Shown in pieces: positions 14,162 through 36,111 of a stretch of 64,000 bases of DNA; position 1 is the stretch's first letter; each line of letters starts with the position of its first letter. Made by a program: the position numbers and the translations under genes. The DNA comes from Escherichia phage EI-SP-GF: the sequence record OR992645.1; one strand, given 5' to 3'. The notes beneath the pieces were generated by a model. It was not told the DNA's origin. It saw nothing but the letters and a program-made list of their open reading frames with translations, and made no database searches.

Positions 14162-14542
14162 ATGGCCCAGTGGAAGACAACAGTTGACCTTCATGATCAG
14201 TGGTTAGGACGCATAACTGAAGACGGGAAACTGGTAGAGTGGGACAACAAGCATGTTAGCGAGTTGGCAAGTATTGTGGCTGGCAAGTTACGCTCCAAGT
14301 TCCCTGAACAACTGGATCCTGATAATTCAAAGTTCGATCCTGAGTTGGAGGATGTTGTATACTACTTCGATACCGTGGATGACTACGATGCGTGGCTTGC
14401 AGCACGGAATCTTTACCCGCAAGGCTCTGCTATGCGCCAGATGGAAGAAGATTATCCTCCGTGTGAGCAATTCAATAGCGCAATGACTTGCCTCTATGAT
14501 TGGGCAGATAAGAACCTTGTCTGGATTCGAACTGCATTCTAG
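14162..14542 (+). CDS. Hypothetical protein
   Basis: 126 aa ORF with GAGG RBS. Confidence 0.6.
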   Translation: MAQWKTTVDLHDQWLGRITEDGKLVEWDNKHVSELASIVAGKLRSKFPEQLDPDNSKFDPELEDVVYYFDTVDDYDAWLAARNLYPQGSAMRQMEEDYPPCEQFNSAMTCLYDWADKNLVWIRTAF

Positions 14543-26074: not shown

Positions 26075-28852
26075 ATGAGTATGTGGTCTTTCGACCTGGA
26101 GGCCTCTGGTTTACTAGAAGACCTAGATCTTTATTATCACTGCGGCTTGTTTAAAGAGCTGAATAAGAACCGTTTTATGCTGTTCCTTCCTCTAAATGAC
26201 CGCACACACTACTCTGAAGAGGATATAGAGAAGGCTAAGAACTTTATTCTGGCAAAGAAAACTCTTTATAAAGATTTTGAAGTTCGCATAGCAGATTTTT
26301 CAGAGTTGGAAGGTTGGCTTACAGGCAATTCTGACTGGTCACCCACAGCTTTGAACTGCCACAACTGCTACAGCTACGACTTTATGCTGATGGAGAGATT
26401 GTCCGGTATTCATTTTGATATGTTCCGTGACCCTAAGTGTATGGGGACTATCAACGACCACCAGGTTAATCTGTTTGATACGTTGGCGATGAGCCGAATC
26501 TTGTGGCCTGATCGCCCTTTACCAAAAGGTTGTCCGGACTCTGTATTCAACCCGGTTACTAAGAAAATGCAGCCTGTTGGTCCTCACGGACTTATGGCAT
26601 GGGGCTACGCCCTTGGTAACCAGAAAGTTCAAATTGATGACTGGCGCGATCTTCCGTTGTGGAAGTATGTGGATCGTGTATTCGAGGACGTTATCATCCA
26701 GGAGCTGCTCTGGAAAGAGCTGGTAGCGGAATCAAAAGGTGTATTCTACGGCAAATCTGACATGCAGAACTTTATGTACGATCCAGCCAAAGAGAAGCCG
26801 AAAGGGTTCAAGAAGATCACCTGGAAGAACGCATTACGTCGAGGCATGCTGCAGCACTTCCTGATGGAGCTGCAGGCCCGTCAGGGTGTATACTTCGACA
26901 TAGATGGAGCTATTGCTTTACGTGACCGTTGCGATGCGTGGATGAAAGAAATAGCTGATCGTGTTGAACCACAACTGCCTTTAAAAGAGCTGTCAATGTC
27001 TCAGCGGCCCAAGTTCCCTGAAAAGCCGTTTAACCAAGACGGGACAATCTCTAATAATGGTTGGAAATGGTTAAAAGATAAGCTTGGCTATCCTGTAGAC
27101 ATGAGCGCTTTAGAGTTCAAAGCCCCGCCTAAGAGAGCATTTACCTCTACAGGGGATGTCAGCAAGATGGGGATAAAATGGTGTGAAGAGATGGGCTGCA
27201 AAGACCCCGATAAGATGGCTGATTTCTTGAGAGGCTATATTAAGGGCACTTCCACACCACACCCTTTGCCTAAAGAGCTGATGGATCAGGCAATAAGTGA
27301 TCTACAGCAGAAGCGAATGCCGGACTGCAAGATACCTATGAAAATCAGCAATCAGGACGACATTAAGCGGTATCTGATCAGCGCTGGCTGGCTCCCGACA
27401 ATGTGGAGAACTAAGGATGTAACTAAAGACAGCAAGAAGAAAGCTCTACCTGATGCAGATGTTGATGCACGAGTATATGCTTATATGGACGAGCTTTTAG
27501 AGTCAGAGTATTGTGACCTAATTATCAACTTCTGGAACAAAACTGATGCTAAGTTCCAGACAACCGTGCACAAGTTCCGAAGCTTTCCTAACTCCGAAAG
27601 GATTAAAAAGGAAGTGTTCGGGAAAATACGTAGAAAAGCCAGGGCACTTATTACTTCTCCGCAACTGAAAGATACGTTTGGACACCTGTGTCCGAATCTT
27701 GAAAAATTGAACGGAGAGATGGCTAAAGATATCGTCTTGTGGTTATCATTGCGAAACCGCAGATCGGTCCTTGACCCAATCAAGGAGGATAAGGTTGATA
27801 CTGGTCTTCTTAATCACCCACGTTTGAAGATTGACCATAAGCTTCCTGCTAAAAGTTCTGGGCTAACAAACACTTCCAGACAGAAACACAGTATTTGTGC
27901 AAACATGCCTAAACCATCTCCTAAAGTGGTTATGGGTAAAGAGATGCGTAGTCTATGGGGTGTTCCTCCTGGATACTTTCAGATCGGTATTGACGGGTCC
28001 AACTTAGAGCAGCTTATCGGGGCTTGGGGTGCCTTTGAGTTCGACAACGGCCTGTATTATGATGTTGTAAGTAACGGAGACGCACACCAAAACAATGCTG
28101 AGGCATATACAAAAGTAGCAGGCAGAGAGGTGTCCCGTAACGACGGTAAACCTATCACGTATGGTGTTATGTACGGGGCACAAAAAGATAAAGTTGCAGA
28201 TATGCTGGACATCTCTCCAGAGTTGGGGCAAAGGGTAATAGATGCACTTTGGGATGCCAACCCCGGTCTTAAGGGGCGCAAAGAGGATCTGGAGAAATTC
28301 TGGGAAGCAACAGGTAAGAAGTTTATCTACTCTTTTGACGGTCATGCTATTTGGACACGCTCTAAACACTCTTTGCTTAATGCATATCAGCAAAATGGCG
28401 GTGCATCACTGTGTGACCTAGTTGGGATACTCATGCACCACCAGATGGTGAAGCGTGGATGGTATGATGAGGGTGTTCGTCGTATTATCTATTACCATGA
28501 CGAATATCAGCTTCAAGTGCCTGACACACCTAAGTATAAAACCGTATACACCTTCGACACAATTGAAGAGCTGGAAACATTTAAAGCCCAACAAGAGGCT
28601 AAACTTCATGTGTTCGACGGTCATAAGTACAAAAAGGCACGCAAAGATGAGGACGGAAACGAAGTGGTTGACAAGGATGGAAATACGGTATACGATCCTA
28701 TCTTGAACGATGACGGAAAGCTTGAACTTATCTGGAGCCCTGTGGGCGAAATGGTGGTGCATTGCTTCTGGCAGGCTTCTAAAATGATGGGCGTTCCGTT
28801 CCAGATCACAGGTGAATACTTGTGCGGTCGTAACTGGGGCGATTGTCACTAA
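26075..28852 (+). CDS. DNA polymerase, family A, with 3'-5' exonuclease motif
   Basis: Exo motif FDLEASGL at N-terminus; motif B RNDGKPITYGVMYGA; motif C YYHDEYQLQV; 925 aa. Confidence 0.85.
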   Translation: MSMWSFDLEASGLLEDLDLYYHCGLFKELNKNRFMLFLPLNDRTHYSEEDIEKAKNFILAKKTLYKDFEVRIADFSELEGWLTGNSDWSPTALNCHNCYSYDFMLMERLSGIHFDMFRDPKCMGTINDHQVNLFDTLAMSRILWPDRPLPKGCPDSVFNPVTKKMQPVGPHGLMAWGYALGNQKVQIDDWRDLPLWKYVDRVFEDVIIQELLWKELVAESKGVFYGKSDMQNFMYDPAKEKPKGFKKITWKNALRRGMLQHFLMELQARQGVYFDIDGAIALRDRCDAWMKEIADRVEPQLPLKELSMSQRPKFPEKPFNQDGTISNNGWKWLKDKLGYPVDMSALEFKAPPKRAFTSTGDVSKMGIKWCEEMGCKDPDKMADFLRGYIKGTSTPHPLPKELMDQAISDLQQKRMPDCKIPMKISNQDDIKRYLISAGWLPTMWRTKDVTKDSKKKALPDADVDARVYAYMDELLESEYCDLIINFWNKTDAKFQTTVHKFRSFPNSERIKKEVFGKIRRKARALITSPQLKDTFGHLCPNLEKLNGEMAKDIVLWLSLRNRRSVLDPIKEDKVDTGLLNHPRLKIDHKLPAKSSGLTNTSRQKHSICANMPKPSPKVVMGKEMRSLWGVPPGYFQIGIDGSNLEQLIGAWGAFEFDNGLYYDVVSNGDAHQNNAEAYTKVAGREVSRNDGKPITYGVMYGAQKDKVADMLDISPELGQRVIDALWDANPGLKGRKEDLEKFWEATGKKFIYSFDGHAIWTRSKHSLLNAYQQNGGASLCDLVGILMHHQMVKRGWYDEGVRRIIYYHDEYQLQVPDTPKYKTVYTFDTIEELETFKAQQEAKLHVFDGHKYKKARKDEDGNEVVDKDGNTVYDPILNDDGKLELIWSPVGEMVVHCFWQASKMMGVPFQITGEYLCGRNWGDCH

Positions 28853-31645: not shown

Positions 31646-32056
31646 ATGGTGTCTCCTTTATGTTGTTCAAATAAAATCGGAGATTCCACAATGGAACAAA
31701 TGAACGATCAAGCGTCGGTTGCGATGAACGAGCAAGAACAACCTCAAGAATTTTTCTTAGGGTTAAGCAAAGATCAAGTGTCTCTTCTGCTGGTACTTTC
31801 TTCTTTTATGGGAAGACTTCAGGAGCTCACACAACAACCAGAGGCTGAACAGTTATTTCAGGCTCTGCGCGAAGAAGAAAAATATCGTCGTTTGGATTAT
31901 GCCTTAGGTTGGGTAGCTCAGCAACGAGATATGCTAATGGCCCTTTCTGGGACGACAAGTTTTGCAATGGGCCTGTTGGCTCAAGTGCAGGACAAATTAA
32001 TTCAAGCAGGGTTTGCACACACAGCAAACACCAACGAAGAACAAGGAGACAAATAA
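31646..32056 (+). CDS. Hypothetical Gln-rich protein
   Basis: GAAGGAGA RBS; 136 aa. Confidence 0.5.
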   Translation: MVSPLCCSNKIGDSTMEQMNDQASVAMNEQEQPQEFFLGLSKDQVSLLLVLSSFMGRLQELTQQPEAEQLFQALREEEKYRRLDYALGWVAQQRDMLMALSGTTSFAMGLLAQVQDKLIQAGFAHTANTNEEQGDK

Positions 32057-33327
32057 TGAGCGTTATTCAACAATTTGCCAACCCGATGAATCCGCGTGAA
32101 ACTGTTTTACTGGCTCACGGTATGATTAAACGTGTCAGCATCAAGCCCATTAAAGGTGCTGATCCTACAACAGGTATTAAAACCACTGTGTGGCAAGGTA
32201 AGAAAATTGAATCCAGCCACACCATCTCTTTACTGATTTCTGAACTGGACTCCTCTGATAACCTGCTCCAAGGTGGTGAAGAAGTTTGGATCAGTATGGG
32301 TGATAAACTGCTTAAGCATGGTCATCAAGACTCCGTCTCTGTTAAAATTGACGACAAGTGGGAAACCGTAACGCCAGGATGGATCGTAAATATCCCTTTG
32401 AAGGCAAACGAGCATAACGGCAAGACCTACTACAAAGGCTCACTGGCTAAAATGGTTAAGTTGGGGGCAGGAGAGGCTCCAGCAGCGCCACAGCAACAAA
32501 AACAGCAACAAGGCACACAATCACAAGGCCAGAAGCAGAAACCTCAGCAGAATGCCAATCAGGACGTTTTACGCATCTATGGTGATGTGACTCAGATTGT
32601 TGGCAACGTGGTTACTGTCAATGATCACAAGATTGGTGAAGGTGCTATGGTTGTCACGGATGAGCAGCTTAAAGACCTGGTGGTAGGTGGTCGTGTTGCA
32701 GCCATTGTTGACAAAGACACCGGAAACATTATCAGTGGTTTCAAAGCCTACCCACCTAAGGCAGAGAACGGTACACAAGGTTCTGGTGGTAAGCGTAAAT
32801 CCTCTTACGACCCCATCGGTGTAGAGACAGGGCACAGTATCAATGCATTGCAGATCATCCTGGATCGCGGGTTTAAGATTGACAGCCCTTTAGATGTGGC
32901 TAAAACACTGCACGTGGTCACCATCGAGCTTAAGAAAGAGTACGCTCAAGCCACTAACCGAACTGAAGATGAAGTAGGTGCCAGTGTTGGTAATGCGGTA
33001 TTGAACGCTTGTCGCCGTATTGACAAGAAAACGAAAGTTGATGATTTTGCAGTAGCAATTACTGCAGAGGCAAAAGATGTCTTGACTAATCTTGCTGAAC
33101 CGTTGTATGATTGGATCAAGAACGGTGCTGGAGCCACTGACCATCAAGAGCCTCAAGCTGCCAAACAGGAAGCCGCCCCACAGCAAAACACTGTAGACGC
33201 TCCTCCTGTAGATGATGCGGAAGACGACCCGATGGATCAGAATCCGGCACAGTACGACTTCTGTGATGACATACCTTTCGCTCCGGTAGGTCTGCAATAT
33301 GGTAAAAGTAGAATCTACGCATTGTAA
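32056..33327 (+). CDS. Putative ssDNA-binding protein with SSB-like acidic DDIPF motif near C-terminus
   Basis: ATG 32056 after AAGGAGA RBS; Q-rich linker; acidic tail [23 protein letters not shown] followed by 16 more residues; OB fold not verified. Confidence 0.6.
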
Positions 33328-33922
33328 GAGGTGCATCAAGTGCGGAGAGGTGAAAAACCTCTCCGAGTTCTACAAACATCCAAAGATGGCTGACGGTCAT
33401 CTTAATAAGTGCAAAGAGTGCTGTAAGAAGGCCAGCAGAGAGGCTGACCAGTTTTCCCACAACTCTTCGGAAAAAGGTGTAATACGCGTGCTGTACAAGT
33501 CTCAAAAGTGCAACAGCAAGCAAAGAGGTCACCCTCCTCCGACTTACACCAAAAAAGAGTTTAAGGAGTGGCTATACCTAAACGGTTACAAAGAGTTGTA
33601 TGATCAGTGGGTAGCCAGCGGATACGACAAAAGGAAAAAGCCTTCTTGTGACAGGATAGATGATTTCAAAGGGTACTCTTTTGATAATATCCGTTTAACG
33701 ACTTGGGGAGAAAATAAAGATAAGCAGACGGAGGATATTCTGTTGCATAGAAGCACCAGCGGTAGACGGTGTAAAAATGTAAGGAGGCTGGACATGAATG
33801 GCAACGTTCTTAAAGAATGGGTATCCCACAATTCTTGCCGAAGAGAAACAGGGATATGTGTTGATTACTACATTCATGAAAAAATTCCAGCTCCCGATGG
33901 ATACCTCTATGAATACTTCTAA
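33299..33922 (+). CDS. HNH_3-like homing endonuclease with zinc ribbon
   Basis: CxxC...CxxC zinc-ribbon-like N-terminus; [27 protein letters not shown]; overlaps 3' end of SSB-like gene by 29 nt. Confidence 0.55.
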
Positions 33923-34496: not shown

Positions 34497-34694
34497 ATGA
34501 TTTATCGAATCCGTGTGAGAGAAGATGCACCAGGTTGTTACTTTGACTGGCGTGGGTGGTGGTTTCTCCACCCAATGGATGGACTCACAGATAGAATGCT
34601 AGATGCTGCCCTTTACACAGATACTGACATAGAGTATAATCTTTACTTGAAGGATGGTATCGATAACGGCCTGTTTGAAGCAATTCCTGCGTAA
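34497..34694 (+). CDS. Hypothetical protein
   Basis: AGGAGG RBS; 65 aa. Confidence 0.5.
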   Translation: MIYRIRVREDAPGCYFDWRGWWFLHPMDGLTDRMLDAALYTDTDIEYNLYLKDGIDNGLFEAIPA

Positions 34695-34759: not shown

Positions 34760-35185
34760 ATGATTTATGAAATGCCAAAACTGATTCGTGACGATGCACG
34801 AAACGCCCACACCTTTATTATGGGCAAGCGCATGGATATTATTTGCCACAAAGACTTCTGGGAAGGAAGCTACTTCACAGAATATTTTGGAAAAATGGAT
34901 GATGGCCTACTGATCCAGTTTTACACCGATGCGGAAAACAACATTAGTTGGGAGTTCGAGACCGAAGATATCCATAAACTTTTCACCTTCCTCGACATTA
35001 AGGTTAAGGCCAAGTTTGAAGAAGGTGAGTGCGACGATTGTGGATTTTATGAGGTAACAGATTTCTATCTTCCGAGCGGTAAAAACCTTTACTATGAAAG
35101 CCACTTCGGTAACTCCAATATGCCACAGTGCTGGACTGAGTTTTTTGAAATTGTGGAAGAGGAGCTGGAATATCGTGATTATTGA
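34760..35185 (+). CDS. Hypothetical protein
   Basis: GGAGAA RBS; 141 aa. Confidence 0.6.
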   Translation: MIYEMPKLIRDDARNAHTFIMGKRMDIICHKDFWEGSYFTEYFGKMDDGLLIQFYTDAENNISWEFETEDIHKLFTFLDIKVKAKFEEGECDDCGFYEVTDFYLPSGKNLYYESHFGNSNMPQCWTEFFEIVEEELEYRDY

Positions 35186-35633
35186 TACTGTAGAGGGAGA
35201 TTTAATCTCCCTTTTTAAGAGCGGTGCTGGTCACCTGATCCACGGTTGTAACTGCTTCCACACAATGGGTAAGGGTGTAGCAAAACAGATTGCCCGTGAG
35301 TTCCCTCAAGCATTGGAAGCTGATAAAATGACTATGCACGGTTGCCTAAGCAAACTGGGCGCGTTCTCCCGCTGGGAGCACTTATCTCCGATAGGTATTG
35401 TCTACGGAATAAATCTGTATACTCAGTTCTACCCAGGGCCTAATGCTGAATATTTCTCAATACTGAAAGGCTTTGAGCGAGTCAATGAAGTATTTGAGGG
35501 GTCGATTTTACCATTCTACATCCCTAAGATCGGGTGCGGCATAGGCGGTTTGAAGTGGGAACATGTAGAGGACATTATTAACCTTGCCACTTTTGATATA
35601 GATATTATAGTGGTGGAGTACAAAGGGTGTTGA
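35175..35633 (+). CDS. Macro domain protein, DarG/Poa1p-like ADP-ribosyl hydrolase family
   Basis: GDLISLFKSGAGHLIHGCNCFHTMGKGVAKQIAREFP and IPKIGCGIGGLKWEHVEDII match the DarG-type macro signature from memory; start GTG 35175 uncertain (in-frame ATG 35094 would overlap upstream gene). Confidence 0.7.
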   Translation: MIIDTVEGDLISLFKSGAGHLIHGCNCFHTMGKGVAKQIAREFPQALEADKMTMHGCLSKLGAFSRWEHLSPIGIVYGINLYTQFYPGPNAEYFSILKGFERVNEVFEGSILPFYIPKIGCGIGGLKWEHVEDIINLATFDIDIIVVEYKGC

Positions 35634-35658
35634 CAGCTATATTTTAAGGTGGTATAGT
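35630..35658 (+). promoter_or_regulatory. Sigma70-like promoter (TTGACA-17-TATAGT)
   Basis: TTGACA 35630-35635, TATAGT 35653-35658; GGGGAG RBS and ATG 35688 follow. Confidence 0.65.
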
Positions 35659-36083: not shown

Positions 36084-36111
36084 TTGACATCTGAAAACTG
36101 CAGTATATAAT
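36084..36111 (+). promoter_or_regulatory. Sigma70 consensus promoter (TTGACA-16-TATAAT)
   Basis: TTGACA 36084-36089, TATAAT 36106-36111. Confidence 0.65.

Follow-up and report, generated by a model that had tools for sequence, protein, structure and literature searches.

Locus, start codon and neighbourhood

The window analysed here comprises 64,000 nucleotides of one strand of Escherichia phage EI-SP-GF (sequence record OR992645.1), a Vequintavirus, i.e. an rV5-like virulent myophage of E. coli. The locus consists of a small gene for a macrodomain protein, the open reading frame in front of it and a number of candidate expression signals:

34612..34640, + strand: sigma-70-like promoter candidate from a consensus scan, TTTACA-17-TATAAT (11/12 match), 5' of the 34760-35633 unit
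34760..35185, + strand: upstream ORF of 141 aa, assigned to PHROG 8157 of unknown function (E 5.8e-80), without Pfam match
35160..35164, + strand: Shine-Dalgarno-like AGGAG, read directly in the sequence, 10 nt 5' of the GTG at 35175
35175..35633, + strand: macrodomain CDS, stand-alone, 152 aa, GTG start and TGA stop, homologue of T4 Tk.4/AdfM
35630-35658 and 36084-36111: near-consensus sigma-70-like promoter candidates from a consensus scan

The 3 kb around the macrodomain gene showed 98.4% identity to the phages ECP32, ECP2303 and ECP2309, and matched 118 phage records in total. The orthologue in ECP32 is already annotated as "macro domain protein" with the identical GTG start, while other GenBank records of the orthologue carry the label 'phosphatase' (many) or 'Poa1p-like family protein' (one). 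A chance ORF is excluded by several lines of evidence, which comprise the Pfam match described below, the match to the PHROG 335 profile (E 2e-60), the 104 homologues found in the database and the occurrence of tblastn matches in about 5% of the phage records (2803 of 50,697), including the T-even tk.4 adjoining vs. Furthermore, the gene is under purifying selection, with a dN/dS of 0.116 compared to the orthologue of bov10K2 (79.6% protein identity). It is conserved across Vequintavirus, and a protein identity of at least 80% was determined by tblastn in 87 phage records.

The open frame spans 35094..35633 (+ strand) with the GTG at 35175 lying in frame, and a preceding sequence-only reading had left the start ambiguous between this GTG and the ATG at 35094. 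The GTG is favoured because AGGAG is located 10 nt upstream, because the ATG is lost in bov10K2, which has Thr at the aligned residue, and because the homologues of T4 and Krischvirus kvi begin at the equivalent MII/MIV and have a stop in frame 1-5 codons ahead of it. Both the GTG and the AGGAG are kept in ECP32 and NHEP1 and also in bov10K2, which is more distant, and a start equivalent to GTG 35175 was found in all 77 aligned homologues. A start at ATG 35094 would yield 179 aa and overlap the upstream gene by 92 nt without a Shine-Dalgarno sequence. Moreover, it is not kept in bov10K2 and its extra residues are absent from every homologue, and it was rejected. The ambiguity is thereby resolved in favour of the GTG.

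The macrodomain gene starts before the upstream ORF of 141 aa has ended, with an overlap of 11 nt. Based on this overlap, the two genes are probably co-transcribed and translationally coupled. Their order is the same in ECP32 and bov10K2, while the 141-aa ORF is unlinked to tk.4 in Krischvirus and T4. Genes for replication, namely helicase, methyltransferases, primase-helicase and DNA polymerase, lie 5' on the same strand. The earlier placement of the gene inside the replication module holds true as far as the vicinity is concerned, but the gene is not part of the module itself: the DNA polymerase ORF ends at 28852, and the macrodomain gene follows 6.3 kb farther downstream amid a long same-strand array of small, early-type ORFs. 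Ten neighbouring ORFs showed no Pfam match and only PHROGs of unknown function, save one endonuclease VII-like gene. As pattern matches, the promoter candidates are compatible with early transcription by the host polymerase; the number of sigma-70-like sites in the region (10 compared to 6.1 ± 2.8 in shuffles) is no significant excess.

Fold and active site

The translation from GTG 35175 contains EGDLISLFKSGAGHLIHGCNCFHTMGKGVAKQIAREF and KIGCGIGGLKWEHVEDIINL. The two blocks that had been named as signatures of DarG-type macrodomains, 'GD…HGCNCFHTMGKGVAKQI' and 'IGCGIGGLKWEHVEDI', are both found in the 152 aa. A search with macro profiles and a structure prediction compared with DarG had been proposed as checks of this assignment, and both came out in its favour. 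With an E-value of 1.5e-7 and 31.8 bits the protein exceeds the gathering cut-off of 22 for Pfam Macro (PF01661). The NCBIfam DarG model NF048014 reached 47.6 bits against a cut-off of 250 (E 1.4e-12) and was matched at positions 3-143 of 338 only; likewise, the PADLOC DarG model (E 5e-14) was matched by its macro part only. Among solved structures, the top sequence matches were M. tuberculosis DarG (5M3I), Poa1p, BT1257, SCO6735 and TARG1.

An AlphaFold2 model built on the 77-sequence alignment showed a pLDDT of 96.4 and a pTM of 0.91. In Foldseek, TARG1, T. aquaticus DarG and Poa1p were the best matches with TM values of 0.7-0.8, and the predicted model gave a TM of 0.75-0.79 to ADP-ribose-bound TARG1 and DarG, with TARG1 at the top. 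The model accordingly groups with macrodomains of the DarG/TARG1/SCO6735/Poa1p type and shows the three-layer alpha/beta/alpha macro fold, including the GxG loop and the Gly-rich diphosphate loop. The nearest relatives in structure as well as in sequence belong to the ALC1-like class, not to the MacroD, PARG or viral nsp3 types. Judged by sequence and predicted fold, the protein is a genuine member of the TARG1/DarG/SCO6735/Poa1p ('ALC1-like') macrodomains, an assignment that does not separate DarG-, TARG1-, SCO6735- and Poa1p-like activities. At this class level, the initial designation as a DarG/Poa1p-like macrodomain was right. A ranking of the four relatives by profile score or fold was uninformative, with near-equal scores of 57-68 bits for the 77-sequence family profile against DarG, TARG1, SCO6735 and Poa1p; together with BT1257 they were matched at E 6e-18 to 1.5e-14.

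The putative active site could be located by alignment in four segments of the gene:

35241..35252, + strand: codons of H23-G24-C25-N26, from the alignment to DarG, SCO6735 and PhiKZ AdfM
35268..35276, + strand: codons of G32-K33-G34, the GxG loop predicted to line the ADP-ribose cleft, from alignment
35412..35426, + strand: codons of N80-L-Y-T-Q84, from alignments; T4 Tk.4 also reads NLYTQF
35532..35549, + strand: codons of G120-C-G122-I-G-G125, the putative glycine-rich diphosphate-binding loop, from alignment

Nine residues (G24, N26, G34, A36, N80, Q84, P117, G120 and G122) are invariant in the 77 homologues, and H23, G32 and G125 are each at least 90% conserved. N26 aligns to N22 of DarG, N27 of SCO6735 and N23 of PhiKZ AdfM, while H23 aligns to H24 of SCO6735 and H23 of Poa1p; the roles of N27 and H24 in SCO6735 have been described (PMC9411070). 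Within an alignment of seven proteins including DarG, TARG1 and SCO6735, G32 and G34 are invariant, and the role of the GxG motif in macrodomains is known (PMC9503650). In the diphosphate loop, G120 and G122 align to G126 and G128 of SCO6735.

A deviation from DarG and TARG1 concerns position 84. Here, Q84 aligns to the catalytic Lys of DarG (K80), TARG1 (K84) and PhiKZ AdfM (K78), and to Gln85 of SCO6735 (in 'ANMIGQHG'). Going by these alignments, the T4-type AdfM family comprises Gln where DarG, TARG1 and PhiKZ AdfM have the catalytic Lys. For SCO6735, the removal of thymidine-linked ADP-ribose from DNA and the rescue of E. coli from DarT have been shown; the Q85A variant is inactive, N27S loses activity and G128E lowers activity, and a water-mediated, lysine-independent catalysis was proposed (PMC9411070). 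The counterparts of Q85, N27 and G128, i.e. Q84, N26 and G122, are invariant in the 77 phage homologues. As SCO6735 demonstrates, a Gln-type active site of this kind can be competent on the DarT2 product.

Relation to known phage and cellular macrodomains

The protein and T4 Tk.4 align over residues 1-150 and 1-152 with 41% identity (E 7e-43). Both are single-domain proteins of 152-155 aa with Gln at the catalytic position, the stretches HGCNCFHTMG and NLYTQF are identical in the two, and a P-[KR]-IG-x-GIG motif is common to the protein and the tk.4 products. By homology, the protein is a member of the T4 Tk.4/AdfM family, although at 41% identity the substrate specificity could have shifted. 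In contrast to T4, where tk.4 is a Straboviridae gene located between vs and tk, the present gene occurs in Vequintavirinae with other neighbours, and unlike tk.4 it has a GTG start that overlaps an upstream ORF. In Krischvirus kvi, tk.4 has the same position as in T4, flanked by vs and tk. The Krischvirus kvi Tk.4 shares 69.5% identity with the vequintavirus protein, compared to 41% between the latter and T4 Tk.4 and 45% between the two Tk.4 proteins. These identities indicate a lateral exchange between Krischvirus and Vequintavirus.

In the window, the sole significant tblastn match of Tk.4 was 35175-35624. A second macro-like region at 14222-14422 showed an E-value of 0.29 with Tk.4, belongs to an unrelated ORF of 126 aa and was regarded as noise, and tblastn with an improvised consensus peptide gave nothing further. 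The macro gene of Bas54 (Vequintavirinae) was not found by name in the HIDEN-SEQ supplements.

The family membership connects the gene to experimental work on phage defence. In a transposon screen of T4 on a DarTG2 host, tk.4 was the single significant, conditionally essential gene, and a clean deletion of tk.4 sensitises T4 to DarTG2, for which the gene was named adfM, with AdfM denoting anti-DarT factor macrodomain (bioRxiv 10.1101/2025.11.20.689424). This evidence for T4 Tk.4 is genetic and originates from a preprint. In the case of PhiKZ, gp104 (AdfM) strips the ADP-ribose added by DarT2 from DNA and protects the phage, and this Lys-type protein is the only phage AdfM tested biochemically (PMC13309987). 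The name AdfM in the two papers from 2025-26 hence spans a Lys type (PhiKZ) and a Gln type (T4 and the protein described here). The assumption of the sequence-only reading, a counter-defence enzyme against DarT-like toxins, is thus backed by experiments on the homologues T4 Tk.4 and PhiKZ gp104, and extends to the vequintavirus protein by homology.

PhiKZ gp104 resembles the protein in being an orphan macrodomain from a phage and DarG-like in class, and each has an Asn equivalent to N22 of DarG. However, the identity amounts to only ~22-25% (tblastn E 0.006-0.027), and gp104 keeps a Lys (K78, in 'PTKD') where the vequintavirus protein comprises Gln, which places the latter outside the gp104 type. 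Another difference is that gp104 is imported into the phage nucleus; to our knowledge, vequintaviruses do not build such a structure.

Outside phages, parallels are found in SCO6735 and BT1257, which share with the phage protein the Gln in N-x-x-x-Q, the H-x-C-N and the glycines of the GCG loop. Both are stand-alone, orphan proteins that neutralise DarT; the phage protein is likewise an orphan, and DarT neutralisation is predicted for it. Despite these similarities, the identity is only ~25%, Val25 of SCO6735 (Val/Ile25) corresponds to Gly24, and the mobile loop following the Gln, which in SCO6735 is extended and carries K89 and K94 for DNA binding, is 6-7 residues shorter and lacks the lysines.

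Several features separate the protein from DarG proper. The DarG proteins of T. aquaticus (5M31/5M3E) and M. tuberculosis (5M3I) possess a C-terminal DarT-binding domain that is missing here, and DarG2 combines the catalytic Lys K80 with a neighbouring darT, compared to Gln84 and no adjacent darT in the phage. Only Asn22 of DarG, which is needed for turnover, is matched by the invariant N26. The low score, the missing second domain, the absent catalytic Lys and the gene context led to the rejection of DarG proper, so that of the initial term 'DarG-type' the DarG-like macrodomain persists but not an identity as DarG. Poa1p and TARG1 are cellular enzymes with other substrates. Neither F152 of Poa1p, the yeast ADP-ribose-1''-phosphate phosphatase, nor K84/D125 of human TARG1/OARD1 is present in the phage protein; the TARG1 pair is replaced by Q84 and G124, while of the residues probed in the crystal structures of Poa1p H23 is kept, S30 aligns to T30 and F152 aligns to Gly.

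Predicted function and rival explanations

Altogether, it is considered likely that the protein acts as an orphan, Gln-type ADP-ribosyl-DNA glycohydrolase which reverses the DarT2 modification of single-stranded phage DNA, corresponding to the function of AdfM. By analogy to its homologues, we infer an enzymatic activity, thymidine-ADPr-DNA as substrate, a role against DarTG2 and an early expression. Accordingly, the protein would be produced early in infection and would strip the ADP-ribose from those thymidines of single-stranded phage DNA that the DarT2 toxin of the host modifies. The removal would restore replication and packaging, and an abortive defence of the DarTG2 type would be neutralised. 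In the active site, the invariant Q84 takes the place of the catalytic Lys of DarG and TARG1 and would be held beside the invariant N26. The catalysis therefore probably needs no lysine and is mediated by water, in line with the mechanism put forward for SCO6735, in which the Gln positions both the distal ribose and the transition state.

A different substrate class would be given if the protein processed soluble ADP-ribose derivatives, either as a housekeeping or as an anti-signalling enzyme. Candidates would be ADP-ribose-1''-phosphate as in the reaction of Poa1p, O-acyl-ADP-ribose supplied by the Sir2-like enzyme of the phage itself or by an RNA-repair pathway, and ADPr-derived immune signals or toxic metabolites. 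A survey of comparative genomics argued that the macrodomains of phages act mostly on soluble ADPr derivatives (PMC9503650). This explanation would account for the alignment of H23 with H23 of Poa1p and for the 'phosphatase' labels in PHROG 335 and many GenBank records as well as the single 'Poa1p-like' label, and it would fit the genome of NHEP1 (96% identical to the source phage), in which an RNA ligase, a Sir2-like protein, a nucleotide pyrophosphohydrolase and a phosphoesterase are clustered together. However, this cluster lies ~50 kb from the macrodomain gene, beyond the window, and is absent from T4, which has the same macro family and no annotated Sir2. The name 'phosphatase' goes back to yeast Poa1p, whose F152 (mutated in 6lfu) aligns with Gly, and we know of no phage member of the family that has been demonstrated as a phosphatase. 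Moreover, the one conditional phenotype described for tk.4 occurred on a DarTG2 host (bioRxiv 10.1101/2025.11.20.689424). Processing of soluble derivatives is therefore regarded as unlikely.

The erasure of ADP-ribose from protein or RNA, directed against ADP-ribosylating host defences that hit proteins or mRNA or tuning the modification made by a transferase of the phage, appears even less probable. In its favour, TARG1 as the top Foldseek match hydrolyses ADPr on protein (Glu/Asp) and nucleic acids, and the Gln-type SCO6735 acts on protein as well as on DNA (PMC9411070). On the other hand, the replacement of K84/D125 of TARG1 by Q84/G124 speaks against a TARG1-like reaction, and the phenotype of the T4 homologue is specific to the DNA-modifying DarTG2 (bioRxiv 10.1101/2025.11.20.689424). 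In addition, tblastn of the window and the whole NHEP1 genome revealed no homologue of T4 Alt, ModA, ModB or NADAR AdfN at E<0.3 (all E>0.3 for Alt, ModA and ModB). Since homologues of Alt, ModA and ModB are lacking in both, there is no support for a role of the protein as an eraser of ADP-ribosylation made by the phage itself.

It would also be conceivable that the exchange of Lys for Gln abolishes hydrolysis as in ALC1, leaving a protein that binds ADP-ribose without catalysis or inhibits DarT stoichiometrically, by sequestering ADPr-modified sites or by binding the toxin. The macrodomain of ALC1/CHD1L also carries Gln, and the dead Q85A variant of SCO6735 still inhibits DarT by interaction (PMC9411070). 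Nonetheless, the equivalents of the catalytic N27, Q85 and G128 of SCO6735 are all invariant, the C-terminal DarT-binding domain is missing and the Gln-type SCO6735 itself is a highly active hydrolase (PMC9411070), which renders a non-catalytic protein highly improbable.

Assuming hydrolysis of the DarT2 product as outlined above, an accessory gene that is conserved in rV5-like phages receives a likely counter-defence function against DarTG2, and it is predicted that these phages resist E. coli carrying DarTG2. Phages of this group serve in phage-therapy and biocontrol work. The macrodomain annotation of the gene, the published counter-defence role of its family and the concept of an orphan, antitoxin-like macrodomain in phages were already known, so that the gain is incremental. 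As a more speculative extension, which we hold possible but would not expect, the Tk.4/vequintavirus clade might represent a mechanistically distinct, lysine-independent branch of AdfM, convergent with the Lys type of PhiKZ and perhaps, like SCO6735 with its dual specificity, erasing protein or RNA adducts too. Such broad substrates of the Gln type would imply protection against several ADP-ribosylating defences and not against DarTG2 alone. For the design of catalytic-dead controls or inhibitors, the presence of Gln instead of Lys has to be taken into account.

Probable lateral transfer and start codon of the macro gene

The product of tk.4 from the RB49-like Krischvirus phage kvi (L006 1501-1956) showed 69.5% identity to the vequintavirus macro protein (window 35175-35633), compared to only 45% identity to T4 Tk.4. 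Since the Krischvirus protein is closer to the vequintavirus protein than to its T4 counterpart, the protein comparison points to the macro gene having passed laterally between Krischvirus and vequintavirus, which are myophages of unrelated lineages.

The annotated start of the gene differs between the relatives. While an upstream ATG, resulting in 179 aa, was chosen in NHEP1 (L004 21095-21634), the GTG, resulting in 152 aa, was chosen in ECP32 (L001 7176-7634) and bov10K2. Altogether, the comparison between the phages favours the GTG over the upstream ATG as the probable start.

Promoter-like sites downstream of the macro gene

Two sigma-70-like promoter candidates were observed:
35630-35658, + strand, TTGACA-17-TATAGT with an upstream TG, near-perfect
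36084-36111, + strand, TTGACA-16-TATAAT, 12/12

Both are located directly 3' of the macro gene, in short intervals separating small ORFs. The presence of two such near-perfect sites between small ORFs suggests that this region may comprise numerous distinct early transcription units.

Differences to related phages in the neighbouring genes

A further difference to the relatives concerns two genes upstream of the macro gene:
32056-33327, + strand, PHROG 4477 protein gene, 423 aa (25 C-terminal residues not shown)
33299-33922, + strand, endonuclease VII-like gene (PHROG 1035, E 1.4e-40)

The ECP32 orthologue of the PHROG 4477 protein comprises 408 aa and terminates precisely in QYAFDDDIPF*, an acidic tip of the SSB-like type at the C-terminus. 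In the window, the endonuclease VII-like gene is inserted exactly at the stop codon position of this 408-aa form, and as a result of the insertion the protein carries an altered tip and is 15 residues longer. Compared to the window, no endonuclease VII-like gene was present at the corresponding site in ECP32 or NHEP1; in bov10K2, an endonuclease VII gene lies 5' of the same gene block.

The DNA polymerase ORF (26075-28852, + strand) has an identical length of 2778 nt in the window and in ECP32, whereas a CDS of 3747 nt is annotated in NHEP1 (L004 11760-15506), which may reflect either another choice of start or a difference in the sequence itself. Beyond the window limits, adjoining genes of the closely related phage NHEP1 (L007 14696-18549) encode a phosphoesterase, an ATPase, an RNA ligase, a Sir2-like NAD-dependent protein and a nucleotide pyrophosphohydrolase. 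The arrangement resembles an NAD-linked RNA-repair cluster, and such a cluster could give rise to ADP-ribose derivatives.
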